Shown in pieces: positions 13,021 to 62,973 of a DNA stretch of 64,000 nt. A model generated the notes under the pieces. The model made no database searches. It saw nothing but the letters and a program-made list of their open reading frames with translations, and was not told the origin of the DNA. Source of the DNA: Spironucleus salmonicida. Taxonomy: Eukaryota. The translations under genes and the position numbers were made by a program. Numbering within the stretch: the first letter of the stretch is position 1; each line of letters opens with the position of its first letter. Location of the stretch: the NCBI RefSeq assembly GCF_000497125.1, contig NC_090601.1:372001-436000 (forward strand). The letters are read 5' to 3'.

Positions 13021-13042
13021 TCTGGCAGTGCAGTCGAATTCG

Positions 13043-21600: not shown

Positions 21601-24600
21601 AAGGCCTGGCATGAAAGAGTGTTTAGAAACTGTCAGAAGAAATTTAAAGAATGCAAGAAAGCTTTCGATATTATTCTTAAACAAGCTTACAGAAATTGTT
21701 AGATCAACACCGACAGAAATTTCCGAAAAAGTTCCATCCCAAATACCTGCAATTTTCAAACCAAACTATATGCATAATTTAGTCACTAACAAAACTAGAG
21801 CCCATATTACTCTTGAAGTACACAACCGTGATATTATTGAAGAACTTTATCATGCTAAAATTTGGAATGATAAATGTTTCGAATGGTTAAGTCAATTGAA
21901 ATTCTATTTGATTACTGATAAGAAAAAAGATGATAAAGCAGAAGAACCATATATTTTATGTAGATAAACTAGTACAGAACTTAAATATTAGTATGAATAT
22001 ATCAACAATAGCGGTAGACTTGTTGTTACACCACTTACTGATAGATGCTACATTACTATTACATCCTCAATGGAGATATAGAAAGGAACATTGCCCTAAG
22101 GTCCAGCTGGTACAGGTAAAACAGAGACAGTTAAAGATCTTACTAAGGGTTTAGGTATATTATGTGTCGTATTTAATTGTTCTGATGGTTTAGACTTTAA
22201 ATCTCTTGGAAGATTATTATCAGGATTATGTTAATCTGGTGCTTGGTCATGCTTCGACGAATTCAATCGTCTTTTACCTGATGTTTTATCAGTCGTTGCT
22301 TAGTAGATTAACTCTATTTTATAAGCGGTTTCTAGAGACGTATCAAAGTTCATGTTTGAAGGCCGTGAAATTCCTTTAAATAATAATATTAATGTATGTA
22401 TCACTATGAATCCAGGCTACGCTGGCCGCTCTGAATTACCTGAAAATTTATAGTAACTTTTTAGACCTATTTCTATGGTTGTACCTGATATGAGATTAAT
22501 TTCAGAGGTCATGATTTATTCTGAAGGCTTTACTACAGCTCGTATATTAGGGTAGAAACTAACCTCTTTATTTGCTCTTTGTAATCTTTAACTTTCTAAG
22601 CAGTCTCATTATGATTGGACACTGCGTTCACTGAAAGCTATCTTAGTTGCTGCTGGCTCATTAAGAAGATCATATCCTCTTTATTCTGAAGATGTAGTAC
22701 TCATGCGTGCTATGCAATTCTCAACTGAGCCCAAGCTTATTAAAGCTGATTAACCTTTATTCAGAGGTTTAGTCAGTGATTTGTTCCCAGGTTTAGAGCT
22801 CTCTGAAGTATCATATGGTTTACTAGATGCTGCCATTGATATGGAATTCCATATTCGAAATTTATTTTTCAATTCTAGATAGAAAGAAAAAGTATTGTAA
22901 CTTTATGAAGCTAAATCTGGACGTCATGGTGTAATGCTTATAGGAAAATCGGGCGGTTCTAAAACTTTAGTGTATGAAATTTTAGCTGCTGCTGAAATAA
23001 GATGTTATAGAGCTTATGTTGAATCATGTGATTCTAAGAGTGCATTTAAAAATCCGTATAGTTTACTCATTAAGCATGCTATAGAGGCTAATAATTTAAA
23101 GAACATTGACATTTTCTTAAAAGTTGTTTATAATGATCATTTAGGTAATGATAAAGTTCTTTCGGAACGTAACTTTTTCATCAAAACGTTATATTGGTTC
23201 AGAGATAACTCCAAGATTGAAGACCATGGTAATAATAAAAAGGTAACGTTAGTTACTGCAAATAATAATCCCGAACCTATTTATGACTAAACTAAGGCAA
23301 CTATGCATGATGTTTAATATCCTACTACAATTTCATATATTAATCCCAAGTCTTTAGACTTGAATTAATTATATGGTGCCATGGATCTATCAACAATGGA
23401 ATGGGTAGATGGTGTCGTATCTAATATTTTACGTTCAACTTCACAAGAATCTTAAAATGGGCAAGCATTTGGGGCTTACACAGTAGAATAGTTATAATAA
23501 ATTGCAAAAGATACTAAAGATTTCAGATATGACTTTATCTAAAATTTAGTCAGATTTAAATGTTACTGGGTCATGTATGATGGTCCTGTCGATACTTTGT
23601 GGATTGAGTCTTAGAATTCTGTGCTCGATGATTCCAAGGTTTTGACATTGGTAAATGGGGAGCGTATCGCTTTTCCTAGTTAAATTTCCATGTTATTTGA
23701 AGCTAACGATCTTGATGTAGCTTCACCAGCTACTGTTTCACGCTGTGGTTAATGCTATTTCGATTTGAATGATGTTAATTGGGAATGGTAATATTGGCAA
23801 TGGGTTGAGGCGAAATATAAAAATAGTGGTTCGGTCCAAAATTTAACAAACGAAGCAAAGTAAATTGTTGTTGAAGTTTTAGAAAGCTTTGCTGCCAAGG
23901 TCCTCAGAAAATTGTTCTTATTAAAGACCAACGATGAATTGCCTTAAATTATTCCTCAGGCAGATTATGCTATTGTTCGCATGTTCATTCATTTATTTGA
24001 GGCATTCTGTGCTGATTACAATGGTTTAGAAATTATTCAGGGTGAAGAAGCGTAAGTTAATCGTGTATTAGAAATGATCATCATATTTAGCGTAGTCTGG
24101 GCATTTGGTGGTTCTTTAACACCATAAGGTAGAAAGAATTTCGATATCGCTGTTAGAGAGCTTGATGGCAGTTTACCGGCCACTGATTCTGTATTTGAGT
24201 ATCGTGTTGATTTCGGAAAGAAATAATGGATCCACTGGAATGATTCTGTTCCTAAAAACTGGAGGCCTGCTCCTGGTATACCAATTTATGCAGCAATTGT
24301 TCCAACGGTTGATACTGTTAGGACGGAGTATATAATGAAGACGCTATTATTGTAAGAAAATCTTTATTATCTTCAGAAGAAACATTATATTACATTGGCT
24401 GGAACTAATGAATATACTACCAACTTTGGTACTTTATTATTTGGTACATCGGGTACTGGTAAAACCGGTATTATTAAGAATATTATTATCCCCGCATTTG
24501 ATTAAGCAAATATTTTAAACTCTGCTTATGAGATATTCAATAACAAGGCTTTAGCATCGGATAGTGCTTCAGATATTGAGAAGTTTTATGTGAAAGGATT

Positions 24601-27600
24601 ATTAGGTAAATATGATGCAGTATAGTTAGGTTTGTCTGCTTAAACATCTGCAGATAGAATCAGAGCTGTTATTGAGTCTCGATTAGGTTAAAGAGGTAAT
24701 TCTTTGGCTGCTAAGGGAACTCGTTTGATGGCATTTTTAGATGACTTTAATATGCCTAGTTATGATGATTATGGTTCACAACCTTCATTAGAAACGGTTA
24801 AACTGTATGCAGAAAGAGGTTCCTGGTATAAGCAAAAGAAAACGTAATATAACTTAACAAATATATATGACGTTGATATCTTAGCTAGCATGGCTACACC
24901 AGGTGGTGGACGTAATTAGGTCTCAGGACGTATTTTATCTAAGTTCAACATTGTTTCTATTGACACACCAGCTGATTCCGTTTTGAAATCCATATTCTAA
25001 ACTTTATTAAGTCTTCACTTTTAATCCTTCGACGAAACTATTAGATAGTAAATCGAATATTTAGTTTAAGCCGGCATTGAAGTATTTAATACTATTTCAT
25101 CTACGCTGCTTCCTACCCCAGTTAAACCATTCTATGTATTTAATTTACGTGATCTGTCTAAGTTCTTCTTAGGTTTAATGAATGCAGATTCTGAATAGTA
25201 ATCGTCGCCTGATACTATTGTTAAATTATGGGTACATGAATGTTAGAGAGTATATCAAGATAGATTATTACCTGTTGATCGTTAATGGTTCCTTGAACTA
25301 TTAGGGTAAAAATTAGGTCAACACTTTAATACAACTTTAAGCAAGGTCTATACCAACAAAGAGCCTCCTATTTTTGTTGACTTCATGGAGACTACTCCAG
25401 TTCCTATTCCGTATGGAAAGGAAGGTGACGAAAAACTAGTGGGTATATTCTAAGAAGCGAATAATAGGATATCGTTAAGAAAAGTTGTAGAAGAAAAGCT
25501 TTAATATTACAACGAAACCCACCCTCCTATGGATTTAGTCTGTTTTGCGGATGCCGTTGAGCATATTTGCCGAATGACAAGAGTGCTATCACAGCCTTCT
25601 GGCCATATGCTCTTGGTCGGTACTGGAGGTTCTGGAAGAACTTCCTTGGCAAGACTTGCAGCATCAATCTAAAATCAAGATATATTTACTATTGATGTTG
25701 GTAAAAATTATAGAATTTAGGAATTCAAAGAGGATATGAAAAAATTATTCTTTACTGCTGGTGGTTCCCAAAATCAACCAGTTTGTTTCCTATTAAATGA
25801 TAATTAAATATAGTATGAAGCTTATCTAGAAGACGTTAATTCTATCCTTTCTTCAGGTGAAATTCCAGGTCTTTTCAATGCCGAAGACATGTAATCTATT
25901 CGTGACATGATGTCTCCGATAGCGAAAGTTATGGGTCTGTCAGAAAACATGGACTCGTGCTACAATCTTCTCTTAAGAAGAGCTAAAGAAAATCTGCACA
26001 TCGTTTTGGCATTTTCACCTTCACACGAAATGTTTAGAACACGCCTTAGAATGTATCCAGGACTGATATCATCCTGCACAATTGATCTATTCGGTGAATG
26101 GCCCATTTCTGCACTAGAAGAGGTTTCTAGTTATTTCATGCATTAATTCGTTGAATTCAAGGAATATGACATTTACGACAACGACGAATTTTCTAAAAAG
26201 CAGCCACAAACTACTGGTTAGCCGACATCTGCTAGAAAGAAGCATGAACCACTATCTTCAAGAATTGCACACTGCTTCTCACACCTACACGACTCAGCAC
26301 ACCAAATATATCAATAAATGATGGAAGCTACTGGAAGAAAGCTCTTTGTGACACCAGCAAATTATTTATCATTAGTCAGGCTCTACAGAACAGTTTTACT
26401 CACTCAAAAAGGTAAAATTATGTATTCCTTAACAAAGTTATAGGGTGGTGTTGGAACGCTTTTAGACACTCGTGATTTTGTTGAAACGATGCGAATCGAA
26501 CTGAACGAGAAGAAAGTCGAAGTCGACAAAGCAGCAGCTGATTGTGAGCTTTTCATCAAAGAAATCGCTATTAAGCAGGAAATCGCCGACCAAAAAGCGC
26601 AACAAATCAGCAAAGACGCCGAAGTTCTCGCAGTGAAGCAGAAATAGTGCGAGGCGACCGTAGAGTTCACGAAAGAGAAATTGCAAAAAGCCGAACCTAC
26701 ACTGAAAGCAGCCTAGGACGCACTAGATGCACTAAACGACTCGGATATCGTCGAGGTGAAGTCCTTCAAGAAGTTCGCGAATTCGGTACAGTTGGTGCTG
26801 TTCGCGGTGATGGTTTTGCTCAAAAAGAAGCCGGATTTGGAAACCGCAAAGGCAGCGCTGAACTCGTCTTAGGTGAACTTTTTGCAGTCCCTGCGACGTT
26901 TTGACGAAAATTCGATAACAGAAGCGTAGAGCAAATAGCTAAGAAAGTACTTGTAGGACCCAAATTTCACACCAGAAACGGTAGCAAAGGCCTCTAGAGC
27001 CTGTTCAAGCATCTGCCAATGGGTGGTCGCTTTGAGCGAATATGCGACGGTGTACAGGTAGGTCAAGCCACTTTAAGACGAATATGAACGTTCTATGGCA
27101 GAATTAGCTCAATAACAGGAATTACTGCGTCTAGCACAAGAGGAATTGGCCAAAATCACTAAATAAGTCGAGCAGCTTCGTGAGGATTTCAGAAAATCGG
27201 CTGCCAAGAAAGATGAGCTTAAAAGAAGCGCAGAAGAACTAGAAACGAAGCTCCAGAGGGCCGATAAATTAGTCAATGGGCTTGCCAGCGAGCGAGAGCG
27301 TTGGACTCAGAAGATTGGTGAACTAAAGAACGATTTAAGCAAGCTTCCTGGTGATTGTCTTATTGCTAGTGCATTTATCAGTTATTCTGGTAGTTTGATT
27401 GGCAAATATAGGCGTGAATTGATGAAAAAGTGGATGGATGGAGTTATTAAGTATGAAGTTCCTTATTCGGGTTCTACATTTAACGTTGCGCACTTCTTAG
27501 CAGGTGCTGCAAATATTTTCTAATGGACGACGTTCGGCCTTCCTTCTGACAACTTCTCTGCTGAAAACGGTGTTCTGATTACTTAAACTACGAAAGCTCC

Positions 27601-30600
27601 GTTTATTATCGATCCTTAGCGTCAAGCTAGTAGGTGGTTGAAGAGAATGTATCAAAATGATCCCACATAGGCTGATAATGTTAAAATAACGAATATCAAG
27701 GATCCTGATCATATGAAAATTATTGAAATGGCTGTTTAGTTTGGTTAAATTGTTATTTTAGAAGATGTGGTCGAAAACGTTGATCCCTCTCTTGATCCTA
27801 TTATCTAAAGATAAGTTGTTAAAAAATAAGGTAGAAATGTAATTAAAATCCGTGATAAGGATGTTGAGTTTAATGATAATTTTAGGATTTTCCTATGTTC
27901 TCGTTTGAATAATCCAGAACTCACACCAGAATTGTTTGCTAAATGTTGTATTATCAATTTCTCCGTTGTTAAGGAAGGTTTAACAGATTAATTGCTAGCA
28001 TGTGTTGTTTCTAAAGAACGCCCAGAGCTAGAAGAGCAAAAGAATAAAATAGTGGTAAATACTGCTGCGATGAAGGATACTATTGTTAAGTTAGAAGATT
28101 AAATTTTGTAACTTTTATCTTCATAGGCCGAGGCTGGAGGATCAATACTCGACAATGAACCACTTATTAAGGCTCTTGAAGATTCAAAGCAAACATCCAT
28201 ATAGATTACCAAGGAACTCGAGTCATCTGCGATTACAGAGCGTAAAATTGATATTGCTAGACGTGGATATTAGCCTATCTCAGAACGCGCTTCGCTCTTA
28301 TTCTTTGTACTTTAAGATCTTTCCACGATAGATTTCATGTATCAATTCTCATTAGATGCTTATACAAAATTATTTATTAATTCTATCGCTAATTCTTAAT
28401 AGCATGATGATATCTCGGCAAGAATAAAGATTCTTAATGAATTCCATACTTATTCTGTTTACAAATTCTGTTGCAGAGGTCTATTTACTAGACATAAAGT
28501 TCTGCTATCCTTGCACATGTCAGCTAAAATTTTAGAGAACCAAGGTAAATTAAATATATAAGAATATTAATTCTTGCTGAGAGGTGGGCAAATATTCGAT
28601 AAGTCATAATAACCATAGAATCCATCACCTGATTGGATCTCAGAATAAATGTGGGATAACCTTTGTGTTTTAGATAAGTTAGGAAATTTCAAAAATATTG
28701 TCCCCTAATTTGAGTAAAGATTGAAAGACTGGTACTAGAATTACTTTATTGTTACTGAGCCAGAACACGCTCCGCTTATTGGCGAATTTGAAGGAAATTT
28801 AGATGAATTACAGCGAATGTTAGTACTTAGATGTATCAGACCAGATAGATTAATCCATGCAATTAATAATTATATTGGTAATAACATTGGTATTAATTAT
28901 ACTTTGCCACCGCCATTTGATCTAGGATCCGCTTTAGGAGATTCTGCACCAACCATTCCACTAATCTTCATTTTATCGCCAGGAACAGACCCAACTGCTA
29001 CTTTGATTAATTTCTCCAAATAAGGACGTGGTGATCGCGCAGATCGTTTGAAGATTGTTGCTTTAGGTCAAGGGTAACAAGAAATTGCTAGATAGGCATT
29101 TTATGATGGTGTTAAAAACGGATATTGGGTATTATTAGCTAACGTTCATCTTTCGTCTTCATTCTTAGAAGAATTAGAGAAAATGATTGACGATTTATCT
29201 CGGTAAAACGTCCATAAAGACTTCAGATTATGGCTATCTACAGTTGCCTCTAAGACATTCCCTATTGGTATACTTCAAAATTCTATTAAGATAACTACAG
29301 AGGCACCTGCAGGTATTCGTGCCAATTTGGCAAATGCATATAATGTTATTGAAAATTCTGTAATCAACACATTTGCCGCTTCAAATGAGGATGACGCTAA
29401 ACGTTTATCTAACCCTAAGAATCCTTAATCTTTAACTATCGATTAGAAAGATATTGCGTTTAGGAAGGTTTTATTTGGTACTGCATTCTTCTATGCACAA
29501 TTGGTAGAAAGAAGAAAGTTTGGAACTTTAGGTTTTAATATTAAATATCCATTTTCCTAGGCGGATTTTGAAACTAGTATTACTTTTGTAAGAAAATATA
29601 TTGAAAATTATGATGTTGTTCCTTACGAAGCTATTAGATATATTGTCGCATAGATTGTGTTTGGTGGTAGGCTAATTGATGAGCTAGATAGAAGAGTTCT
29701 TATTTGTTATATTGATGAACTTTATAACGAGACTGTTTGTGGAGAAGAATAATATTAATTTTGCCCATAATATGAGTAATATTATATCCCGGCTCGAGGT
29801 TAGTTGCAAGATTATAAGGACTATATTAATTAGCTTCCAGGAACAGATCCTGCTGCATTATTTGGTTAACATAACAATGCTGATGTGTTCTCACGTAGAG
29901 TTGAATCTGCCTTATTTTTATCAGATTTGCTATCCATTTAAGGATAAGTAGAAGAACCATAGTAAAAATAGGATGAAAAAGATAAATAGTAAGAAAATGA
30001 AGAAGGTGAATAAAAGAAAGAAGAAAAGTAATCATCTACGCTATCTGCTAGAGAAGAGAGAATTATTTAAATGGCTAAAGACATAATGGCCAACCTTCCA
30101 GCTGAAATTACGAATCTTCCACCTACTATTGATCCAGCTGACCCCAACGCACCTATGCTTTCCGTTCTTTGTTAAGAAAGCGCTAGGTTCTCGCTCTTAC
30201 GTGAAAAAATCTCCAATGACATGTAAGATGTGTAAAAAGGTATTAGAGGTTTAATTGGGATGAGTTAACATTTAGATGATATTGCAAATGATTTAAGCTA
30301 AAATCGATTACCTGTCTCGTGGAATTTAGTTTATAAGTCTACTAAGAGCCTAGCTCCATGGAGTAGAGATTTCACAAAGAGGGTAGAGCAATTATAAAAA
30401 TGGGCTAACAGTGGTCATCCTAAATGTATGTGGCTAGGTGGATTGAGTGTACCAACTGGTTATTTAACTAGTTTGTTATAATAAGCCAGTAGAAAGACGG
30501 GAATAGCCATTGATAATTTAGAATGGGGCTTCAATATTACTACTGCATTGGATCCTGTAAGAGATATTTAAGATAGTCAAGTTCCAAAGATAGGTGATGG

Positions 30601-30910
30601 TGTATTTGTATATGACTTATTCTTGGAAGGTGCTGGTTGGAATATTGATAATAAGTGCCTTAAAGATTCTAACCCTATGGAATTATTTGTTCCTATGCCA
30701 GTCATTAAGTTTATTCCTTAGGAATAAAGGAAGAAATCAGTTAAGTTTAAAGCTGCATTTTATGAATGTCCAGTCTACTTTTATCCGATCCGTACGGGTA
30801 CTAGAGAATAACCCAGTTTTATGCTTAATGCATGGTTAGCTGTAGGACAGAATCCCTCTGAAATGTACGTTAAAAGAGGTACTGCTTTATTGTTGAACTT
30901 AGGGGACTGA
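15695..30910 (+). CDS. DNAH2: Axonemal dynein heavy chain, inner-arm I1/f beta (DNAH2-type), 5071 aa
   Basis: Start, stop and all internal track fragments share one frame. P1 GPAGTGKTE (~22100), [10 protein letters not shown]2 GKSGGSKT, P3 GTSGTGKT, P4 GTGGSGRT, stalk/MTBD, C-terminal CPVYFYP...KRGTALLL. N-terminal [15 protein letters not shown] and RTVLYVP resemble DNAH2 as I recall it. Confidence 0.93.
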
Positions 30911-33004: not shown

Positions 33005-33994
33005 TCACTTTGTAGTTTAAATTCCTGCAGAGAATATAAGGTCTTGTCCATCCTATAAAATAAACCAAAAAGGTTTATTGAATGAAACTTCTAAGACTTT
33101 TTCTTAAACTAAGCTGCTGCCACGCATGGATATTATCGTAACGCTTGCTGCATCTGTACCAAACTCATCAACTGTTATAACAGACTTCTAAATAACACTA
33201 CTGACTCTTAGTTAACTTCCTAACGATTCCCTGCAATCTATACTTTCAAACATCTGATTCACATCAACTTTCTACAATATTTATTTTAGCTCAAAAGTTG
33301 ACTGTATTTCAAACTATGGAAGCCTCAATTCTATTTCTTTAGATCTCAACTTTGCGTCTAAATTTTCTTCGGATAGACTATGCTCAAACGCCGCCTAGCC
33401 ATCCTCTAGCGGGAGTATTAGCCTCGCAACTATATCAGAATCGGCGTACTCTAGCTCCACCACCTGAGCTGTACTGGTGCGCGCATATCCCATATGGCGC
33501 TTTGCATACATCATCTGGCATGGCGTTTTCCCGTTGAATGATGAGAAATCAGCCGCAACAGTTTGTCTTGGGTCGAAGGCATTCTAGAATTTACCGCTAA
33601 AATATAATGCAGAGACCAGAATTACTTCTTCGTCTCCAATCTTCTCCAATATTTTCGGAATCATCCCTGCTGTGTTATCTGATACCCATTTGTTTACTTA
33701 CTCTGCAGACAAAAGTGGCTGTGGATCAATCTTAAACGCAGCCATCGCATCATTACTCTTCAGCAGGTTAAGGTTCCTCATAAATATGTTGGCTGCCAAA
33801 TGAAAGTTCTTATTCGCGGCTGGGTCATATCCTTGTAGGTTAAATACGTTATTTAGCTCATCTTTTGCAGGGCCTTATGCAGATGCAGAAAGCAGTGCCA
33901 GGACATATATTAATGATAATGGTGAGAAAACGATATTCTAACCTTAAGCTAAAGCTGGAGCCATATTGATAGCTGCAATTTTTGTTGGCTCCAT
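33005..33994 (-). CDS. Serpin 2 (329 aa)
   Basis: NIVFSPLSL, core shared with serpin 1, hinge VDEFGTDAASVT, NKPFWFI; ends AAG-TGA. Confidence 0.95.
33351..33859 (-). repeat. 509-bp near-identical core shared with serpin 1 (7839-8347)
   Basis: Paired coordinates sum to 41698; two synonymous differences seen. Confidence 0.93.
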
Positions 33995-49804: not shown

Positions 49805-50167
49805 ATGAACAATTTGTTTCGTAGTTTCAGTTACCTCTAAAATAGATACGACCGTAAATTTCCAGTTCACTATCCACAGTAGCTTCTAGTAACTTAACTC
49901 ATGGAAGAGCAGAATGCTGCAGACACTGAGCAGGTTGAACTTGAAGACAAGAAGATCATTCAGGCGAACTATCGCAGGTACGGCGTTATCAGACGCCCGC
50001 ATCAGGAAAAACTAGAGATTGATGAGGACATCTTTTTTGATCTCGATGGTATCGATACAAATCAGGCACAACCCCGCGACCTAGACTTCATCAACGCGCA
50101 GTTCGTGCGTAACAACCGGCTGTAGATAGAGCGGCGGCGGTACCGCAGGGGCGGGGTACCGGAGTGA
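49805..50167 (+). CDS. Hypothetical protein (120 aa); its 3' end lies inside IR2
   Basis: MNNLFRSFSYLQNRYDRK...RRGGVPE*, ends GAGTGA. Confidence 0.7.
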
Positions 50168-50173
50168 GCAGTT

Positions 50174-51388
50174 TCATCCCCATCCGAATGACGTGTTTGC
50201 GAGCTTGTTGCTGAGCTGGAATGTGTGGTTCTGGATCCGCTCTGCACGCTGCTGCCGCTAGGCACGGTGGTGCTTCATGGACAGGAACACTATATAGGCA
50301 ACCCATACCGCGGTCAGCGCAAGGAACACAAATTCAGTGTTCGTGATGGTGTGTTGCTCTGCATGGCAGCCGCCGCCCCGGTTCGTGAACTTCGGACCGC
50401 AGATGCGGCAGCGGCCATCCGCATAGCACAGATTGCAGTTTGATGCGTGACACTGTAAAGGCTAGCATCCAATCAGCGTCATCTCAAAGCCGAAGAGACA
50501 CTTCTGACAGTTGGAGTGTTCGTCGCAGCTTGCGCAGTTTTGGCGACTGATACAGACGCACACGCCGCCGAGCAGCTAGCTTCCAGTTCCGCATTGAGAG
50601 CAGATGGTATCTGCGCCCAATATGCAGTTCTGTACCAACGGTGCGCCGCAAATACCGCGCGTGCCAGCTTGCCCAGACTCACAATTTCCACAAATAGTTG
50701 GATCCACATCGTCACAAAACAGGCAGTCCCGGGTGTCACAGGAGCCGCACGTGAGACCGTTCTAAGTTGGAATACCGCTGGTGCATGCAATGCAGCGGTT
50801 GTCCTCGCATAGCGTGCAGTGGGGAATGGTCTAGCAGGCGCTCGAGACACAGGAGTCTCCCGATATTGAAACCGAAAGTGAGCCACAGAGCAGGCACATT
50901 CCATTTACTAAAGCGAAGCCCTATTTGCATGCGGAGCAGTGGCGTGTAAAAATATCGCACTGGGCACAGTAGGGAATGTTGGCACAGTCACGCGAGCAGG
51001 CGTGATCTGGCGTTGGCAAATAAGTAGAATGGCATTCCTGACAGATTTTGGTGTTTCCAGAGATAGTACAGGCGAGACACCCGCGAGGGCAATCGCAGTT
51101 ATTGTGTGAAAGAAAGTATCCAGCAGCGCACTGCATGCATATATCGGGTACGTTAGCTATCCGACAGTTTATACCACTATATGCGATACAGGTATTTGAG
51201 TCCTCGTTGGTGACGAACCCTGGTATGCAGCGCGCACAAAGCTTGCCTTAGATAGGCTTACAGATTGCACAGTTCTCAACACTACTACAAGATCCACATG
51301 ATGTATGGTATAGATCTGGTAGGAAACCGGGCATGCACTTGAGGCAGACTGGAGTTTCGGGATGTTCGATTAGACAGTTGGTTATCAT
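50174..51388 (-). CDS. Cysteine-rich (CxxC) membrane protein, copy 1 (404 aa)
   Basis: Mirror of 60227-61441. Confidence 0.85.
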
Positions 51389-51917
51389 TTAGGAATGGAA
51401 ATCATTCAGACTGATGAACGTAGTTCCGTATCCAACCGGTGAAGGAGATTGGGAGGTTACGTTGGATGTACTGCGGCGTGGATATATAGTTCGTATCTGC
51501 GGTGATGGTTTTGGTAAGATCTGAGAAGGCTAGGACGTCGGTACTGAAGGGGTGTTCCCGGTACATTATCTGTGGTAACATCTCTTATATTATGTTTACT
51601 TAGGGGTGAGCCCATCTGGTCCTGCTCGCGGGTGGAGTAACAGTGATCGTTTCTGATATGACATTCGTATACACTGAATAAGTTTTGCTTCATTCCTGTA
51701 CATAATAATATATGATCAAGTTATTTATGAAAAAATCTATTAACTACCTCACCATAATATATTTATAACATTGAATGAAAAACAGGACCTTTACCCAACA
51801 TTGCGAATACTGCCTAATAGATCTAAAGCTATTTCCCTTCCTATTTATAACTTATGATCTGAATGACCATATTAATATATTAATATTCAGTATGTGGTTT
51901 CTACGTATATCTTACAA

Positions 51918-52088
51918 ATGAAGCTTGACTCGGCAAGGCTAAGATAGAAGCTACTTGCAATCAAAAGTAACGAAGCACTGCCACCAAAGCAGTCAATTGA
52001 GGAGGCCCAGCTTCCAATATTATAAACCAATGATAGCTACGAATAGGACTCGTTCGAATTGTCTATGACTTGTATTGAAGGAAAGTGA
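51918..52088 (+). CDS. Small ORF (56 aa), copy 1
   Basis: MKLDSARLRQKLLAIKSNEALPPKQSIEEAQLPILQTNDSYEQDSFELSMTCIEGK*, ends AAGTGA. Confidence 0.55.
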
Positions 52089-52777
52089 GTATATATAATA
52101 TAAAACTATCCTCAGCCAACCAGTTCTTTAAATTGCTGCGGTATCACACTTATAATCGCCCATTAACTAGGTAGCTGGCTTAATATCTGGTAACTCCGCT
52201 GCATGGGAAGCGAAGTATTATTTAAGGTTATGCGATGGAATTTCATATTTTAGATGGTTACACAAGTTTGAAGCGTTTAGTCGATAAAAGCTCTAGTCAG
52301 ACTAAGCAGAAGGAAGTACATAATGGAAGATTTTAAACACGAATATACTTCTTAAATATATTGCACCTCATTATACTTACTAGTCGTGCAGTCGTGTCAA
52401 GGACCAGATAACTGCGGAGATATTACCTTCTTTGAAAATGTATATAATTTCTCTATTATTATCCTAATGTTCAACATTTGCACAGAAACAGCCGAATATC
52501 TATTCCACGAAAATTGTTCTGTATCAGCTTACTACTCTATATAATAAATATTTAGTATTTGGAGGGTTATATTATTTGCTCTCAGTGTATTTTAATCTAG
52601 AAAATACCCCATTGAAAGTCACGAGCTGCATATGAAACACTATACGCTACAAAATCTGCAGTCATTAGTCCCGATCCCTATTTATGTGATACGTATGGGT
52701 GTTTATCAGTCAGCCCTCAGCATGCACATTTATCTAATTCTATAAAAAACCAAGTGTAAAGTAAGTAATCATATTTC

Positions 52778-53029
52778 TCACTCGTCTATCAGGCGCACCA
52801 GCGCCAGGATATCATTAAGCGTGATATCTGAAAGTGATGGAGATTCCCGGATGACAACCTCATCAGATGGATCGTTCCTAGCAATCTTGTAATACTTGTT
52901 CTTCAGCTGAGATACAGTATGACCGCGGAAAGATCTTTCCCGTATGGTCTCCCACCTCCCTCGATATTCCTTATATGCTTGTTGCAACCGTTCCTCTTGT
53001 TCGTAAGTCCATTTAATTCTTCCTGGCAT
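52778..53029 (-). CDS. Small single-repeat Myb-like DNA-binding protein, copy 1 (83 aa)
   Basis: RIKWTYEQEERLQQAYKEYRGRWETIRERSFRGHTVSQLKNKYY; start chosen at MPGR because of the upstream CCACTTC. Confidence 0.85.
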   Translation of the reverse strand: MPGRIKWTYEQEERLQQAYKEYRGRWETIRERSFRGHTVSQLKNKYYKIARNDPSDEVVIRESPSLSDITLNDILALVRLIDE

Positions 53030-53778
53030 TATATATGAAGTGGAGAATCTGTTGATCTCTTTGTATCTATAATATAAGTTTATTTTTATTCTCTCAGATT
53101 TTCTTATCATGTGTAGACTAGATAATCGCGTTCAGTATGAGTTATTTTGGGAAAGAGTACTATCAACCTAAAAATCTTTATATGTATTTTTTAGTATATC
53201 TGCTAGAATAGAAAAAGTTTTTTCTGCATTATTAAAATAATATATGTATTAATGTAATAAAACCAGTAACCATGCAAAATGTCTATATACATTTTAATAT
53301 ATTTATAGTATATACCAACCTCAATACTGATCTAGAAATAGATAATTTTAGGATATAATTTGATAAATAGTAAATTATGATGATCTTAGGAAATTCGAAT
53401 GTATACATTTGTAAAAGATTGCCTAATCATAAATTATATATAAAAGTCCTTTACATAATACTTAAAACTTTATAATTTTTGTAACTAGTAATATTATCTG
53501 AAATTACAATCATTTTTACTTGGCATTTTATATTTATATTATAATATAATATTAGTATTACTAAAAATTATCACAACTATTATAAAATTTAAATTTAGCG
53601 CTAATCGCAGGAAAAATGTTTAAATTTAAAAAATATACAGGTGGATTATATATATTTTTATTAAACACTTACGATATTTGGTATCTCACGTCATAAAGTC
53701 AGTGAGTAATTTGACTTGACGAACTAAAAGTGTTGTTCGTCGTGGTAAAATATAAGTGATTGGTATGAAGAGATAAAA

Positions 53779-54879
53779 TCACTTTATCTCTTACCCATTG
53801 ATCTGTGAAATCCACGAAGATACTACCTCTACCATCGTCTCAGCCCCCATATCCTGTACTGCCTAACTAGGGACTACTCTGATTCCTTAGATAAGATTCC
53901 TCTGCATTTCTTTCATCGTTTTTGGGTACTATTTTTCCAAGTAAAATGAGCTACTGCCAAGGGGGACACTTGCTCTCATTGTTTCATAGAGCATGCTCTC
54001 AAGATCTGTTCGTTTTTGTAGGATCAAGGCAGATATAGTTCTAAGCCTATACAGCTCCTTACACTTAATATATACTAGTTTTTCCAAACTGCGTAGTTCC
54101 TATTTGTAGTGTTGCTTCTCACTTTCGAATTTTTTCAGCAACTCACTGACGAAACTACTCACCTACTACTTTTCTGCTTCATATTTTCTCTCGAAGTCAC
54201 TGATAATCACTTACATCTAGATAATTTGATTGCTTTACTCGCCTATTTTTCTCTCCATTTCTTGTTTTACACTCAGCTCATATCGCTATACGTCTTTTTA
54301 CCCGATAAAGCCCTCGCTGACTGGCTTACTTTACTTTTTCAGCAACTGGATGCCCTTCTAGAGTTCAATGTTCTGTATTCGTAAAAGCTTAGTCTCTCTT
54401 CCAACGTCTTAGTTATATCTTGCCAGCTTCTCTGCAACGGCATCTTCTACAGCTTTCCTTTTGTCTATCTCAAATGCTGCAGTTCGCTATGCAGCATCTG
54501 CAAGTGCTTACTACTTCAAAAGATCTAATTAAAGCTCTAAATCCTACCTCTATTCTTCGCTAATTTCTAGGCGCCGCAAAAGTTAAATCTTCTCTCCTGC
54601 AAACTAACCGAAGTCACTTAGCAGCTACTAAAAGTCATTAATTCGCGATCTTTCCTAGTCTAGATCAGTTCGTAATAATTAATTCTCATGGGCGGCATCA
54701 TCTAGACGCTTATTAGCTTGCTTTTCAGTTTGCGCCTGAAATTCCTCAAGCTTAGACTCCATCGCGCGGTACTTAGCGCGTTCGCGTGCGAGCTCTTCTT
54801 TGAGCTAGTTGATTTATTCGGCACTTCTTCGCTCAATGTTTGCTATTTTCTGATGCAGAAATGTTGGGTCGTTTTGCAT
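53779..54879 (-). CDS. Coiled-coil protein, BBOF1/CCDC176-like, copy 1 (366 aa)
   Basis: Mirror of 56736-57836. Confidence 0.7.
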
Positions 54880-54921
54880 TTTTATATAATAATTTCTATA
54901 TAAATTCACTTATAATTTTTA

Positions 54922-55659
54922 TCATCTTCTTTTGACTTTAAGTTTATAAATTACCTCGTTAAGAATATTCATAACTGTTTAGCTTGCTTGCATATCATAT
55001 AGGTTAAATGAAATAAAACTAGCACAGTTTTTTTCATACTTCATAAAAGCAATATATTATTAGAATTTAGTACCCTCAGCTCCATACAGTAATTAAAATT
55101 CATAAAATTATTTTTGAATGAAAGAATTTTGCTTTAGTTCAAGTAATTATTAAGGTTACATTATAATAGACTTTTAGGTTGATTTTTAATATGGGAAAAA
55201 AATATTGTTTAGTTCTGATTTGTTCAGTTTTTAACCAATTTTTTATTATGAAATAACGTTAGCCACTATATTTTATATAAATTTTTCACGGCCACGTAGT
55301 ACAATCTAAGAAAATAATCCTTTGAAGTTATAAATATCTAATAACTTATCTTATGCCCGCCTCCTAAACTATTTAATTTAAACTTTTTAAATTACTGAAT
55401 TTTATAGTGTAAACTTATTCTGATTAATATCTGATTAAAAATTTAATTATTCCTATGAATAGTTACAGCAATATTAATTACGTAAGCACCCCTTTGTGCT
55501 AATGTCTGTTTACGGTTATTTGTAGGATACATTTCTTTAACTAAATTAACGTTATCTATTGCAACTTTGTGTCTAAGCTTTTTATTTATCTTCTAATACA
55601 TTTTCTATAGTTTTTTTAAGAGTAATGTGAAGTTAATATTAATTTAGTCTTGACATCAT
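54922..55659 (-). CDS. Hypothetical protein in IR2 spacer (245 aa)
   Basis: MMSRLNQYQLHITLKK...KLKVKRR*, open in code 6; AGTGAA shortly downstream. Confidence 0.6.
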
Positions 55660-55800
55660 TTTTTAATATCTTATTTATAACATAAAATAATAATATTTTA
55701 AAACTTTACTTATAATATGAACTTAAAAAATTAGTAATATAAACAAGTAAACAGAATTCACTCTATTAAAAATTACATTTTCAATAAAGTATAATAAATA

Positions 55801-56634
55801 TCATTACACCGAAAGCCAATCTAATATTGTCTTTGATAATTCAAGAGGAATAGCACTGCCTATACTATGGATGCTATTAAAATAAACAATTTATCCCAAT
55901 TTATTCTCGTTAACTAAGGAATAAACTGCTTCGCTGTCAATATAACTATCATTGTCAACTAATATAAACAACCCATTTTATACCGATAAATATGCATTCT
56001 CTAAGCCAGAGAATTAAAAATCTCTTAAATACTTCATCTAAGAATTCACATACTTTTATATTTGATTGTGATAACCGAGTTTCCATATTGCCTTATACTG
56101 ATGATGCTATGGAATTATTTGAGATGTTCTAGAAGAGACTTAGCCTTAAATTATTTAGAATGTTTAATTCCAAAAATATCTTAATAGATAGTTCAAACCT
56201 CTTATTTTGCAAACTTATACCAAGAAGCCTTCTTTTACTTTAACACCACCAGGAGTTATTGCAATAACCAAAGACTCCGATATAGTTCTATTCAATAATA
56301 TGGCAAGTAGTCCGCCAAGTGAATGCCCACATAATATAATGTACTTAAATTTAAACGATTGAATAAATATTTTTAATATTGAGACTACACTTTCTGTTGC
56401 ATATGACTATAATTCTTCTGATTTTCCATGTCCTGGTAAATCAGGTGCTATGACACGATATTCATTCTCTAAATATAAAATCAAAGGTGTATAAGATTCA
56501 ATAAGTTAACCAAACCCATGAAAAAAGAATAAAGGTTACTTATCATTTTAAGAATCATAATAAGATATGCTCTGAAAGAATTAAATTTTTAATTGATCAA
56601 GTTAAATTGACCAATCAACATCTTCGAATTCCAT
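55801..56634 (-). CDS. Alpha/beta-fold hydrolase in IR2 spacer (277 aa)
   Basis: FFHGFG, RVIAPDLPGHGKS, nucleophile elbow GHSLGG, candidate acid in DNDS and His in SIHS. Confidence 0.92.
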
Positions 56635-56735
56635 ATATGTTTAGTCTTATTATGATTATTATATTCATTAAAGTATTAATTTGTTTTATCATGAATATAT
56701 TATTATATTGTTATAATATGTTTATATACCTTAAA

Positions 56736-57836
56736 ATGCAAAACGACCCAACATTTCTGCATCAGAAAATAGCAAACATTGAGCGAAGAAGTGCCGAATA
56801 AATCAACTAGCTCAAAGAAGAGCTCGCACGCGAACGCGCTAAGTACCGCGCGATGGAGTCTAAGCTTGAGGAATTTCAGGCGCAAACTGAAAAGCAAGCT
56901 AATAAGCGTCTAGATGATGCCGCCCATGAGAATTAATTATTACGAACTGATCTAGACTAGGAAAGATCGCGAATTAATGACTTTTAGTAGCTGCTAAGTG
57001 ACTTCGGTTAGTTTGCAGGAGAGAAGATTTAACTTTTGCGGCGCCTAGAAATTAGCGAAGAATAGAGGTAGGATTTAGAGCTTTAATTAGATCTTTTGAA
57101 GTAGTAAGCACTTGCAGATGCTGCATAGCGAACTGCAGCATTTGAGATAGACAAAAGGAAAGCTGTAGAAGATGCCGTTGCAGAGAAGCTGGCAAGATAT
57201 AACTAAGACGTTGGAAGAGAGACTAAGCTTTTACGAATACAGAACATTGAACTCTAGAAGGGCATCCAGTTGCTGAAAAAGTAAAGTAAGCCAGTCAGCG
57301 AGGGCTTTATCGGGTAAAAAGACGTATAGCGATATGAGCTGAGTGTAAAACAAGAAATGGAGAGAAAAATAGGCGAGTAAAGCAATCAAATTATCTAGAT
57401 GTAAGTGATTATCAGTGACTTCGAGAGAAAATATGAAGCAGAAAAGTAGTAGGTGAGTAGTTTCGTCAGTGAGTTGCTGAAAAAATTCGAAAGTGAGAAG
57501 CAACACTACAAATAGGAACTACGCAGTTTGGAAAAACTAGTATATATTAAGTGTAAGGAGCTGTATAGGCTTAGAACTATATCTGCCTTGATCCTACAAA
57601 AACGAACAGATCTTGAGAGCATGCTCTATGAAACAATGAGAGCAAGTGTCCCCCTTGGCAGTAGCTCATTTTACTTGGAAAAATAGTACCCAAAAACGAT
57701 GAAAGAAATGCAGAGGAATCTTATCTAAGGAATCAGAGTAGTCCCTAGTTAGGCAGTACAGGATATGGGGGCTGAGACGATGGTAGAGGTAGTATCTTCG
57801 TGGATTTCACAGATCAATGGGTAAGAGATAAAGTGA
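56736..57836 (+). CDS. Coiled-coil protein, BBOF1/CCDC176-like, copy 2 (366 aa)
   Basis: Long heptad-rich ORF; LEKLVYIKCKELYRLRTISALILQKRTDLESMLYETM resembles the BBOF1 C-terminal motif as recalled (the CDS is secure, the name is tentative). Confidence 0.7.
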
Positions 57837-58585
57837 TTTTATCTCTTCATACCAATCACTTATATTTTACCACGACGAACAACACTTTTAGTTCGTCAAG
57901 TCAAATTACTCACTGACTTTATGACGTGAGATACCAAATATCGTAAGTGTTTAATAAAAATATATATAATCCACCTGTATATTTTTTAAATTTAAACATT
58001 TTTCCTGCGATTAGCGCTAAATTTAAATTTTATAATAGTTGTGATAATTTTTAGTAATACTAATATTATATTATAATATAAATATAAAATGCCAAGTAAA
58101 AATGATTGTAATTTCAGATAATATTACTAGTTACAAAAATTATAAAGTTTTAAGTATTATGTAAAGGACTTTTATATATAATTTATGATTAGGCAATCTT
58201 TTACAAATGTATACATTCGAATTTCCTAAGATCATCATAATTTACTATTTATCAAATTATATCCTAAAATTATCTATTTCTAGATCAGTATTGAGGTTGG
58301 TATATACTATAAATATATTAAAATGTATATAGACATTTTGCATGGTTACTGGTTTTATTACATTAATACATATATTATTTTAATAATGCAGAAAAAACTT
58401 TTTCTATTCTAGCAGATATACTAAAAAATACATATAAAGATTTTTAGGTTGATAGTACTCTTTCCCAAAATAACTCATACTGAACGCGATTATCTAGTCT
58501 ACACATGATAAGAAAATCTGAGAGAATAAAAATAAACTTATATTATAGATACAAAGAGATCAACAGATTCTCCACTTCATATATA

Positions 58586-58837
58586 ATGCCAGGAAGAATT
58601 AAATGGACTTACGAACAAGAGGAACGGTTGCAACAAGCATATAAGGAATATCGAGGGAGGTGGGAGACCATACGGGAAAGATCTTTCCGCGGTCATACTG
58701 TATCTCAGCTGAAGAACAAGTATTACAAGATTGCTAGGAACGATCCATCTGATGAGGTTGTCATCCGGGAATCTCCATCACTTTCAGATATCACGCTTAA
58801 TGATATCCTGGCGCTGGTGCGCCTGATAGACGAGTGA
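58586..58837 (+). CDS. Small Myb-like protein, copy 2
   Basis: Mirror of 52778-53029. Confidence 0.85.
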   Translation: MPGRIKWTYEQEERLQQAYKEYRGRWETIRERSFRGHTVSQLKNKYYKIARNDPSDEVVIRESPSLSDITLNDILALVRLIDE

Positions 58838-59526
58838 GAAATATGATTACTTACTTTACACTTGGTTTTTTATAGAATTAGATAAATGTGCATGCTGAGG
58901 GCTGACTGATAAACACCCATACGTATCACATAAATAGGGATCGGGACTAATGACTGCAGATTTTGTAGCGTATAGTGTTTCATATGCAGCTCGTGACTTT
59001 CAATGGGGTATTTTCTAGATTAAAATACACTGAGAGCAAATAATATAACCCTCCAAATACTAAATATTTATTATATAGAGTAGTAAGCTGATACAGAACA
59101 ATTTTCGTGGAATAGATATTCGGCTGTTTCTGTGCAAATGTTGAACATTAGGATAATAATAGAGAAATTATATACATTTTCAAAGAAGGTAATATCTCCG
59201 CAGTTATCTGGTCCTTGACACGACTGCACGACTAGTAAGTATAATGAGGTGCAATATATTTAAGAAGTATATTCGTGTTTAAAATCTTCCATTATGTACT
59301 TCCTTCTGCTTAGTCTGACTAGAGCTTTTATCGACTAAACGCTTCAAACTTGTGTAACCATCTAAAATATGAAATTCCATCGCATAACCTTAAATAATAC
59401 TTCGCTTCCCATGCAGCGGAGTTACCAGATATTAAGCCAGCTACCTAGTTAATGGGCGATTATAAGTGTGATACCGCAGCAATTTAAAGAACTGGTTGGC
59501 TGAGGATAGTTTTATATTATATATAC

Positions 59527-59697
59527 TCACTTTCCTTCAATACAAGTCATAGACAATTCGAACGAGTCCTATTCGTAGCTATCATTGGTTTATAATATTG
59601 GAAGCTGGGCCTCCTCAATTGACTGCTTTGGTGGCAGTGCTTCGTTACTTTTGATTGCAAGTAGCTTCTATCTTAGCCTTGCCGAGTCAAGCTTCAT
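59527..59697 (-). CDS. Small ORF (56 aa), copy 2
   Basis: Mirror of 51918-52088. Confidence 0.55.
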
Positions 59698-60226
59698 TTG
59701 TAAGATATACGTAGAAACCACATACTGAATATTAATATATTAATATGGTCATTCAGATCATAAGTTATAAATAGGAAGGGAAATAGCTTTAGATCTATTA
59801 GGCAGTATTCGCAATGTTGGGTAAAGGTCCTGTTTTTCATTCAATGTTATAAATATATTATGGTGAGGTAGTTAATAGATTTTTTCATAAATAACTTGAT
59901 CATATATTATTATGTACAGGAATGAAGCAAAACTTATTCAGTGTATACGAATGTCATATCAGAAACGATCACTGTTACTCCACCCGCGAGCAGGACCAGA
60001 TGGGCTCACCCCTAAGTAAACATAATATAAGAGATGTTACCACAGATAATGTACCGGGAACACCCCTTCAGTACCGACGTCCTAGCCTTCTCAGATCTTA
60101 CCAAAACCATCACCGCAGATACGAACTATATATCCACGCCGCAGTACATCCAACGTAACCTCCCAATCTCCTTCACCGGTTGGATACGGAACTACGTTCA
60201 TCAGTCTGAATGATTTCCATTCCTAA

Positions 60227-61441
60227 ATGATAACCAACTGTCTAATCGAACATCCCGAAACTCCAGTCTGCCTCAAGTGCATGCCCGGTTTCCTACCAGA
60301 TCTATACCATACATCATGTGGATCTTGTAGTAGTGTTGAGAACTGTGCAATCTGTAAGCCTATCTAAGGCAAGCTTTGTGCGCGCTGCATACCAGGGTTC
60401 GTCACCAACGAGGACTCAAATACCTGTATCGCATATAGTGGTATAAACTGTCGGATAGCTAACGTACCCGATATATGCATGCAGTGCGCTGCTGGATACT
60501 TTCTTTCACACAATAACTGCGATTGCCCTCGCGGGTGTCTCGCCTGTACTATCTCTGGAAACACCAAAATCTGTCAGGAATGCCATTCTACTTATTTGCC
60601 AACGCCAGATCACGCCTGCTCGCGTGACTGTGCCAACATTCCCTACTGTGCCCAGTGCGATATTTTTACACGCCACTGCTCCGCATGCAAATAGGGCTTC
60701 GCTTTAGTAAATGGAATGTGCCTGCTCTGTGGCTCACTTTCGGTTTCAATATCGGGAGACTCCTGTGTCTCGAGCGCCTGCTAGACCATTCCCCACTGCA
60801 CGCTATGCGAGGACAACCGCTGCATTGCATGCACCAGCGGTATTCCAACTTAGAACGGTCTCACGTGCGGCTCCTGTGACACCCGGGACTGCCTGTTTTG
60901 TGACGATGTGGATCCAACTATTTGTGGAAATTGTGAGTCTGGGCAAGCTGGCACGCGCGGTATTTGCGGCGCACCGTTGGTACAGAACTGCATATTGGGC
61001 GCAGATACCATCTGCTCTCAATGCGGAACTGGAAGCTAGCTGCTCGGCGGCGTGTGCGTCTGTATCAGTCGCCAAAACTGCGCAAGCTGCGACGAACACT
61101 CCAACTGTCAGAAGTGTCTCTTCGGCTTTGAGATGACGCTGATTGGATGCTAGCCTTTACAGTGTCACGCATCAAACTGCAATCTGTGCTATGCGGATGG
61201 CCGCTGCCGCATCTGCGGTCCGAAGTTCACGAACCGGGGCGGCGGCTGCCATGCAGAGCAACACACCATCACGAACACTGAATTTGTGTTCCTTGCGCTG
61301 ACCGCGGTATGGGTTGCCTATATAGTGTTCCTGTCCATGAAGCACCACCGTGCCTAGCGGCAGCAGCGTGCAGAGCGGATCCAGAACCACACATTCCAGC
61401 TCAGCAACAAGCTCGCAAACACGTCATTCGGATGGGGATGA
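60227..61441 (+). CDS. Cysteine-rich (CxxC) membrane protein, HCMP/CRMP-like, copy 2 (404 aa; frame also open from ATG 59912)
   Basis: About 20 CxxC motifs, C-terminal TM FVFLALTAVWVAYIVFLSM and a 33-aa basic tail; CCATTCC just before ATG 60227. Confidence 0.85.
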
Positions 61442-61447
61442 AACTGC

Positions 61448-61530
61448 TCACTCCGGTACCCCGCCCCTGCGGTACCGCCGCCGCTCTATCTACAGCCGGT
61501 TGTTACGCACGAACTGCGCGTTGGTGAAGT
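61448..61530 (-). pseudogene. 3' remnant of the 49805-50167 gene
   Basis: Mirror of 50085-50167; no upstream in-frame ATG before the next TGA. Confidence 0.7.
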
Positions 61531-62973
61531 TTTCACTACGTAACAATACTAGGCGATATATTGTTAGTATTAAAATGGATGACACTTATATTTTTATTGA
61601 ATCTATGCTAGTCTTACTATACTCTATATAATGTCTTTTAGCTTTCGTAAGAACAGATCATATAATATGCTAAGAAAATGATTCTATTTACATAACTTTT
61701 TTATTATTGTAAATCTAATTTAATAATAAATTATCAATAGATCAAGTTATGAAAATATAATTTATTTAAATATACTTCAATTTAAAAGCACTAAATAGTT
61801 TAGAACTGTTAGTATTGCGAGAAAATAAAAGTTACTTAATATTATATTGGATAATAAAAAATAAAAAGTCGATTTTGATATATTTGGATCTTATTATTTT
61901 ACTTTTTACACACATTAATTACTATTGCTTAGTTGAGTAAAAATAAGATGAATATAGCAGATAGCTTTAATTGTTAGAAAAAATTAAACAGTTTATATAC
62001 TTTATGTAATATTATAGCCTAATATAATAAACAAATAATATTTTATTTATTAATATTTAAAAGAATAAAAATACCTTTAATAGTTATTAATAATATATTC
62101 ATTTCTATGTTTATTAAATAAAAATATTGCAGCTGGGAGGATTTGCCATTTAGGGAATACAAAAATAATAGTTTAAATTTTATCTATATTATTGATACAA
62201 TTTATTTTTAGATATAAACATATAGTTATGGAAGAAATTAAATTGTTAATAGTAATATATAATTTTGTATGTAGGTTTATAATATATTAACTAATAAATT
62301 TTTTTATATGTGTAGACACATATTACTACTATCAAATTACTAATTGATTAATTATTAATATTATATGATCAAATAAGTCAGTTAGTTAATTTAAAATTTC
62401 AAAATGCTTGATAAATAGAGGTTTTAATATATTAACATAAGTATGTGCCTAGGAGTTAAAATTAATTAATATATATTTAATTATAAGTATTATAATATGT
62501 TGTTATACAATTAAATATCTAAAAATAATACAATAAACTAGTAACTTAATATTCGATATTCATATTCAATAGTATAAAGTGAAATAACCTTAACTAGCAT
62601 TTTTACAATTATCTTATTCTACAATAAATTGATAGCTGCATATTAGAAATATAAGACATACTTTAACAAAAGGAATGAAATCATATTATTTTTAAAAATT
62701 ATGCTTTAATACTATTTTAATTATTCTCGTATCAAAATATCTTATATAAAGTAATTTCACATAACTATTAATTATATGTAATAAAAAATATAATTAGCAT
62801 TTATTGTAATGTTTTTAAAATTATAATATAAATATAATTTAATTATTTAGTTATTATAAAGATTTTTACAGATTGATTTATAATTAATTATAATTATTGA
62901 ATGTCAATAGTTATCAATCATTGTGAAGAAAATTAATAATTATCAATATTATATACTAATAATAATATAAATT

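Follow-up and report, generated by a model that had tools for sequence, protein, structure and literature searches.

A spaced palindrome of Spironucleus salmonicida from a genome-wide class probably kept identical by GC-biased gene conversion

Introduction

The closest described counterparts of inverted repeat 2 (IR2), a spaced palindrome of the fish parasite Spironucleus salmonicida, a hexamitid diplomonad, are the palindromes of primate X and Y chromosomes, the inverted repeat of plastids, the inverted surface-gene pairs of Giardia, and Drosophila inversions with duplicated breakpoints. IR2 occupies positions 50085–61530 of a 64,000-nucleotide window (C6:372001–436000; contigs of the genome are named C1, C2, and so on here, and coordinates without a contig name refer to the window). 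Primate X/Y palindromes undergo GC-biased gene conversion from arm to arm (PMC8981503, PMC3723533, PMC8600007). In plastids, the borders of the inverted repeat are described as showing "ebb and flow" (PMC5010901), and a gain in GC has been reported (PMC9778900, citing Goulding 1996). Identical inverted pairs of vsp and CRMP genes were described in Giardia (PMC2996952, PMC7641422, bioRxiv 2022.03.07.483299), and Drosophila inversions with duplicated breakpoints were attributed to staggered breaks (PMC1885836).

Sharp GC shifts, from 30% to 70%, were noticed in S. salmonicida in 2007 and were judged not to be readily accounted for by either mutation or selection (PMC1805757); they are weaker in S. 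barkhanus (PMC2874811). A later S. salmonicida assembly was given as 19.2% duplicated, with a GC content of 44.7% vs 30.7% and the orientation of the duplicates unstated, and the available part of that paper invokes gene conversion solely for surface-protein expansion (PMC9509377). The word "inverted" does not occur in the main text of PMC1805757, PMC2874811, PMC9509377, or PMC3916229, and our literature searches, whose scope left most subscription papers and supplements outside, returned no paper on these Spironucleus repeats.

A first-pass annotation of the window had described IR2 and a similar structure, IR1, and had taken them as the sign of a recurrent, genome-wide mechanism that generates and maintains spaced palindromes. 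Here, we analyzed IR2 together with comparable pairs from a sample of the genome, and we propose that they are old duplications that have probably been kept identical by GC-biased gene conversion between their arms.

Results

Self-alignment of the window showed that the left arm of IR2 (50085–54882) and the right arm (56733–61530, its reverse complement) are each 4,798 nt long and are separated by an 1,850-nt, single-copy spacer (54883–56732) with a GC content of ~0.25; the arm and spacer lengths are those given in the first-pass annotation. The arms match at 4,797 of 4,798 positions, and the sole mismatch, 50091/61524, lies 7 nt from the outer end. Long inverted arms more than 99% identical around a unique spacer, as expected of a gene-converted palindrome, were thus found in IR2. 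The companion repeat IR1 (3693–13998, arms 3693–7599 and 10092–13998) was used for comparison; the arms of both repeats total 17.4 kb of the window, in agreement with the earlier estimate. A 120-aa open reading frame (ORF) on the plus strand (49805–50167) crosses the left outer junction, and its last 83 nt recur on the minus strand at the right outer junction (61448–61530), where the start is missing, so the junction does cut a gene that is intact on the left and a remnant on the right. No homologue of this ORF was found among four candidates of similar length, longer forms lying outside this comparison. Elsewhere in the genome, neither the spacer nor the right flank was found to have a copy, the arm is present only as the two local copies, and no decayed homology was detected past either junction of IR1 or IR2, as alignment scores there equaled those of shuffles. 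A mobile element with terminal inverted repeats was also considered and was rejected, as the arm and spacer ORFs gave no Pfam match to a mobility gene and there are no copies elsewhere.

The assembly of IR2 was checked with short-read contigs, which also represent the right arm, from two DNA runs (X1 and X3) of one sample that is perhaps the assembly's own source. In X1, the arm formed a single contig of 4,791 nt with a depth of 378.5, compared with 171.9 for the left flank, 150.5 for the spacer, and 158.9 for the right flank, and in X3 the arm had a depth of 21.2 against 8–13 for flanks and spacer; the tool warns that contig depth is not equal to copy number. Both outer junctions were spanned by contigs reaching 37 nt into the arm, the spacer contig overlapped each arm by 30 nt, which is 1 nt below the bridging threshold, and the sole arm mismatch shaped the contig ends. 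The caveat raised with the first-pass annotation, that reads might not support the structure, did not materialize: the arm has about twice the flank depth, and both outer junctions are bridged. IR2 is real and no assembly artefact. A fold-back chimera or another artefact of assembly or amplification could appeal to the use of contigs from one sample, maybe the source of the assembly, and we regard it as most improbable given the doubled depth in two runs, the contigs over both outer junctions, the contig ends shaped by the mismatch, and a base composition that follows the arm edges, which would be impossible for an artefact.

Next, the composition of arms was compared with that of other DNA in a main sample of 864 kb, which consisted of a 264-kb region that contains the window plus 100 kb per contig, from interior positions of our choosing, on six further contigs, and in a hold-out of 200 kb taken from C8 and from a remote part of C6. 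Inverted pairs were accepted with arms of at least 350 nt and an identity of at least 97%, and 28 clean pairs of the main sample were analyzed, the nested ones not being independent. The overall GC content was 0.506 in arms and 0.339 elsewhere in the 864 kb; at fourfold-degenerate sites the values were 0.716 and 0.377, and in non-coding DNA 0.405 and 0.272. Hold-out arms similarly reached 0.632 compared with 0.338. The excess starts at the arm edge, even within genes. Of 19 genes that straddle an edge, 17 had more GC at fourfold-degenerate sites inside the arm (P = 2e-5), and among 35 crossings by genes scoring at least 20, some of these models being read-through extensions, 22 had a change-point in third-position GC (GC3) no more than 40 nt from the edge with the higher value inside, where 3.4 were expected. 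In IR2, the change-point in the 120-aa ORF lies 13 nt from the edge, with G or C at 23 of 26 third positions inside and 42 of 92 outside (P = 1e-4). The IR1 change-point lies 151 nt outside the edge. Across the right outer junction, GC per 100 nt drops from 0.61 to 0.25. The first-pass annotation had placed the outer junction within a GC-rich island; the junction is in fact the island's edge, and the island looks like a footprint of the repeat rather than its landing site. The adjoining right flank (61531–62900) is single-copy and extremely AT-rich (GC 0.17), and a 1,411-codon ORF predicted by our own gene caller runs from 61948 through it.

The direction of change was read from a third copy on C1, which was compared with the C6:468140 arm. 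Within the arm, G or C stood in the arm copy at 170 sites and the reverse was found at 71, whereas outside the arm the counts were 81 and 73 (Fisher P = 4e-4, inside vs outside). This polarized comparison was enabled by a 6-kb copy of 91–93% identity (C1:715359–721634 vs C6:471029–477434) that is contained in one repeat's spacer and overlaps an arm of a second repeat. In two old palindromes, moreover, identity and GC covaried along the alignment (rho 0.80 on C5 and 0.68 for C2:705986), such that blocks of 99–100% identity were GC-rich and decayed blocks GC-poor. The C5 palindrome (C5:656240–676407) is 20 kb long and holds three nested blocks of 99–100% identity, GC-rich save for the outermost 400 nt; decayed AT-rich stretches separate these blocks, and 32% protein-level homology persists between them. 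Among the 53 flank comparisons of the 28 pairs, five gave a protein-level match, two of which represent a 327-nt identical block between nested arms.

These data bear on whether IR2 is simply young. A recent duplication would be a fresh 4.8-kb copy whose outer break fell at a GC-rich relic of an earlier, lost duplicate or of a recombination hot spot, with the GC ramp described below as the relic's tail. The single mismatch in 4,798 nt agrees with it, as do GC3 values that are still 0.44–0.46 to the left of the IR2 junction, the IR1 change-point outside the edge, and inner non-coding DNA of IR2 at background GC. Furthermore, several ramped arms adjoin GC-rich DNA on one side, and of the adjoining islands one belongs to another inverted pair and another has no copy. 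However, 22 of the 35 crossings, inner edges among them, have their change-point at the edge, the polarized comparison shows GC gain within the arm only, and the sharpest step in IR2 lies so near the present edge that a new break would have had to reuse an old one. A recent copy alone would not give synonymous steps this large at its own edges; therefore, long-term GC-biased conversion is the best reading, and we consider a recent duplication unlikely.

Selection was considered as well, in the form of dosage or surface-antigen duplication maintaining identity while codon-use selection lifts GC. The arm carries a candidate surface protein of the CRMP-2 type, and identical inverted vsp pairs are described in Giardia (PMC2996952). 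Promoterless remnants and non-coding DNA are nevertheless just as identical, non-coding GC is raised as well, GC3 steps occur in mid-gene at the edge, and the cargo of IR1 consists of the end of an ABC transporter gene and the end of a SpoU methylase gene. We therefore give selection very little credence as the cause.

Several points weigh against long-term GC-biased conversion. The gene models are our own and imperfect (754 predicted, of which 465 scoring at least 25 were used). The 449 sites nearest the inner edge of the C6:468140 arm were unbiased (18:21). In one pair with copies 39 kb apart (C2:700001–704298 and C2:743405–747704), the near-identical part is GC-poor and the diverged part GC-richer (rho −0.68), and one C8 pair showed no trend between identity and GC. 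Four GC islands were found outside the sampled arms; two are arms with a partner beyond the block, and the other two have no copy in the genome. IR2 itself has neither a third copy nor decayed flanking homology, so the evidence for its own age comes from one 120-codon ORF. Its non-coding DNA between the Myb and BBOF1-like genes is at background GC (0.226), and the GC3 of 0.43 in the BBOF1-like gene may be ordinary, since 31% of non-arm genes reach 0.44. Finally, the hold-out contained two further inverted pairs where about six were predicted, and 4.1 mismatches per kb at a distance of 8–12 kb where fewer than one was predicted.

Direct and tandem repeats at C5:692344–700000, C6:441507–459849, and C1:774142–777054 are GC-rich as well (0.58–0.68), so the GC bias is not confined to inverted copies. 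Inverted serpin paralogues 25 kb apart in the window (7770–8367 and 33331–33928) are 94% identical over 598 nt only, and the polarity comparison for this pair gave no GC skew (11:12).

The feature that IR2 contributes beyond an otherwise ordinary member of the class is a GC ramp. From the outer to the inner third of the left arm, GC is 0.52, 0.34, and 0.34, and only the outer ~1.5 kb is GC-rich. GC3 is highest, 0.85, at the outer edge, declines inward from 0.69 to 0.44 along the Cys-rich membrane protein gene, stays at ~0.43 in the Myb and BBOF1-like genes, and is ~0.2 in the spacer genes. At weakly selected sites, the GC excess is clear in the outer 1.5 kb and weak or absent in the inner non-coding DNA. 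The ramp has the same direction in IR1 and in several other short-spacer pairs, and it was tied to short spacers (rho −0.63 over 28 pairs, some of them nested). The pattern was found post hoc; the ramp cut-off of 0.075 was likewise set with the data in view, and cut-offs from 0 to 0.2 gave 18:1 to 10:0. The hold-out held no short-spacer pair of at least 97% identity, and its 94% pair had no ramp.

In pairs with spacers below 5 kb, 16 mismatches fell in outer halves and one in inner halves, compared with 35 and 28 for longer spacers. Pooled GC3 climbed with the distance between paired positions from 0.37 (<2 kb) to 0.86 (12–16 kb), and mismatches were fewest when the positions were close. Both trends would suit a repeat that is old throughout and is homogenized near the spacer by copying with little bias and farther out by a mismatch-repair-dependent, GC-biased conversion. 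However, GC3 at the inner edge is 0.96 at C1:750034 (spacer 2.2 kb) and 0.89 at C3:949873 (2.9 kb), and the C8:438509 pair (2.2 kb) has a flat GC of 0.67–0.73 up to the inner edge. A purely distance-dependent law of GC is ruled out by such short-spacer pairs with saturated GC. Because these three pairs, with spacers of 2–3 kb, are GC-rich at the inner edge, distance alone is insufficient, and we judge a position-dependent process quite improbable. The inner arm of the IR2 type is at least as homogeneous as the outer part but poorer in GC, a pattern in keeping with later addition of the kind seen when plastid borders expand. Inward growth, with the outer 1.5 kb of IR2 as its longest-paired stretch and the inner part as a later addition, is accordingly a possible account of the ramp, though we would not put it at even odds.

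To see how common such repeats are, inverted pairs were counted. The 864 kb contained 29, three of them cut by block ends, and their arms made up 16.3% of bases. With the hold-out, 31 pairs in 1,064 kb correspond to ~420 genome-wide (220–630 by bootstrap over nine blocks). Arm lengths ranged from 0.4 to 6 kb (median 1.8 kb), and about three pairs per 100 kb were present on seven of the eight contigs sampled. Direct repeats and tandem arrays of like size, simple repeats excluded, amounted to ~8 loci by our reading of the alignments in sample and hold-out. Arms of 2–10 kb with a spacer below 5 kb, the search proposed with the first-pass annotation, were found in ten pairs of the 864 kb, namely nine of the 28 clean pairs, IR1 and IR2 included, and C7:544021–552187; the two repeats of the window are thus not the only ones. 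The inference of a genome-wide class of spaced palindromes is supported. Of the mechanism postulated earlier, recurrence was supported by the 29 pairs and the two of the hold-out, and maintenance by the GC evidence for conversion; for generation, no birth mechanism was identified. Pairs with longer spacers had denser mismatches (rho 0.69 over 28 pairs). A step in mismatch density that seemed to lie at 12 kb (~0.4 vs 3.2 per kb) was dropped, being absent from the hold-out. The C7:544021–552187 pair is a near-spacerless palindrome, with arms of ~3,998 nt, two mismatches, and ~171 nt between them; it has few genes and, unlike most arms, a GC-poor outer part (~0.26), and it is either very young or an assembly product.

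The genes of IR2 were then examined. The window was translated with NCBI code 6, under which a single 5,071-codon ORF also occupies 15695–30910. The duplicated CxxC membrane protein, Myb and BBOF1-like genes of the first-pass annotation were all recovered. The Cys-rich gene lies on the minus strand at 50174–51703 (509 aa if the first ATG is used, 404 aa if translation begins at 51388), and its second, identical copy on the plus strand at 59912–61441. The protein has 20 CxxC and two CxC motifs and a C-terminal hydrophobic segment, with a hydropathy peak of 2.35 at residue 353 of 404. CRMP-2 proteins of S. salmonicida are defined by at least three CxxC/CxC motifs, a C-terminal transmembrane segment, and the absence of a [KR][KR]x[KR][KR] motif (PMC3916229); that motif is absent here, and the protein has the features of CRMP-2. 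UniRef entries labelled Spironucleus salmonicida CRMP-2 match part of it identically. Two such entries, P0005 and P0006, are differently frameshifted forms of the gene at 50174–51703, and the frameshifts are probably sequencing errors in the two copies. The two gene copies stand head-to-head, inverted and identical, as do identical inverted surface genes in Giardia.

Further inward, a candidate ORF of 56 aa (51918–52088, plus strand, mirror copy 59527–59697) ends in AGTGA; this ORF and another candidate of 69 aa (52112–52321, minus strand) lie between the Cys-rich and Myb genes. The Myb-domain ORF (PF00249, E = 1e-6) is at 52778–53110 on the minus strand and, identically, at 58505–58837 on the plus strand. 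The coiled-coil, BBOF1-like protein of 366 aa is encoded at 53779–54879 on the minus strand, with its ATG 3 nt inside the inner arm edge and a GC3 of 151/355, and again at 56736–57836 on the plus strand. Its nearest ESM-feature clusters were BBOF1/PF14988 (score 0.95–0.96), and no Pfam match was obtained at E 0.01. The spacer holds the hydrolase and the hypothetical gene that had been expected there, both on the minus strand: an alpha/beta hydrolase of 277 aa (55801–56634; PF00561, E = 1e-13; GC3 59/271) and a 253-aa ORF with no Pfam match (54922–55683; GC3 45/246). The Cys-rich, Myb, and BBOF1-like genes are covered by putative RNA contigs, which cannot distinguish the copies; one of these spans 59086–59682, the mirror region of the small candidate ORFs, and none among the contigs listed runs across the right junction.

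Discussion

A possible history of IR2 can be put together from these results. Two mirror-image copies of a multi-gene block flank a unique spacer, and the outer edge cuts a gene. Its birth may have occurred through repair based on homology or template switching. Inverted repeats are probably more stable than direct repeats, and the copies would have persisted because recombination between the arms merely flips the spacer, while direct repeats get deleted. The arms would then have mended each other by gene conversion, a step that is strongly supported and that would leave them ~99.9% identical, dead gene remnants included. The preference of this conversion for G and C is strongly supported too; it would make the GC island a footprint of the repeat that stops at its edge, even in mid-gene. 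Inner DNA that joined the arm later, behind the longest-paired outer 1.5 kb, could have yielded the ramp. Non-homologous end joining (NHEJ) and alternative end joining are reported missing from parasitic diplomonads (PMC8516963), so homology-driven repair is likely the engine.

The layout of junctions was compared for clues to birth. In IR1, an intact ABC transporter gene lies at the left outer edge, and a SpoU-domain ORF (8739–11297) runs from the spacer over the inner edge into the right arm; therefore, the spacer of IR1 has the opposite orientation with respect to the left arm. On the left of IR1, the ORF at 6394–8160 is a 5′-cut copy that reads through an antisense serpin. The IR1 layout is that of either an inversion with a duplicated breakpoint or an inverted insertion followed by a flip of the spacer. 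By eye, IR1, C1:711393, and C6:275317 have their intact genes on opposite arms and two further pairs seem to have them on the same arm, so junction layout cannot select a birth mechanism.

In a wider and more tentative picture, which we hold as a working idea that is less likely than not, some 400 small inverted repeats would organize the nuclear genome like miniature plastid repeats. Without end joining, breaks would be repaired from the neighboring arm, which would keep the arms homogeneous under a very strong bias towards G and C and would push their inner ends step by step into the spacer, up to a unique gene that the cell needs. GC3 would then serve as a clock of paired time, and IR2 would be oldest at 50085 and youngest at the start codon of the BBOF1-like gene.

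The link between GC islands and arm edges, in inverted repeats that number in the hundreds, offers a testable cause for the GC-rich segments of S. salmonicida. In a lineage that lacks canonical end joining, the repeats also provide many natural replicates of GC-biased conversion whose effect far exceeds that seen in primates. Concerted evolution of this kind would affect read mapping, codon-usage signals, and the number of genes counted in about one-sixth of the genome.

With respect to the described systems, the Drosophila inversions similarly carry an inverted duplication of unique genes flanking the inverted segment, and the layout of intact genes in IR1 fits this (PMC1885836). That model, however, ends in NHEJ, which is missing in metamonads, the same layout also results when the spacer flips afterward, and staggered breaks leave lasting arm identity unexplained.

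Giardia, also a diplomonad, shares identical inverted Cys-rich surface genes and GC-rich regions. Its pairs are described as head-to-head or tail-to-tail, 2–4 kb apart, with flanks identical until an abrupt divergence; they comprise mostly single vsp genes, in 14–20 pairs, with 2.4% of genes duplicated. In contrast, the Spironucleus pairs are multi-gene blocks with housekeeping cargo that cover 16% of the 864 kb. Identity in Giardia is limited to the gene and 139–729 nt of flank, with ORFs 2–4 kb apart, whereas in IR2 it continues for 3.2 kb past the Cys-rich gene, over the Myb and BBOF1-like genes, and the Cys-rich ORFs are 8.2 kb apart. GC-biased conversion is not proposed for the Giardia pairs in the available parts of PMC2996952, PMC7641422, and bioRxiv 2022.03.07.483299. 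The class of IR2 thus extends the identical inverted vsp pairs described there to multi-gene blocks.

The plastid repeat resembles IR2, as interpreted here, in that conversion keeps the copies identical, incoming genes gain third-position and non-coding GC, and borders cut genes; plastid borders are described as moving by conversion or break repair. Border movement was established by phylogeny in plastids, whereas in Spironucleus it is suggested by the GC ramp only. The plastid repeat is also single in each multicopy organelle genome, unlike the hundreds of small nuclear repeats found here.

Primate palindromes share with IR2 and its class inverted arms more than 99% identical, a unique spacer, and arms richer in GC than their flanks; replacements skewed to G and C are shared with the C6:468140 arm, and the primate arm–spacer borders move over time (PMC8981503). 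The GC gap is wider in Spironucleus, at 0.51 vs 0.34 (0.72 vs 0.38 at fourfold sites), compared with 46% vs 41% in primates, and the Spironucleus arms are short (0.4–6 kb) and dense, with edges that cut genes. These comparisons indicate that what is new here is probably a known process, GC-biased conversion between palindrome arms, acting at unusual density and strength.

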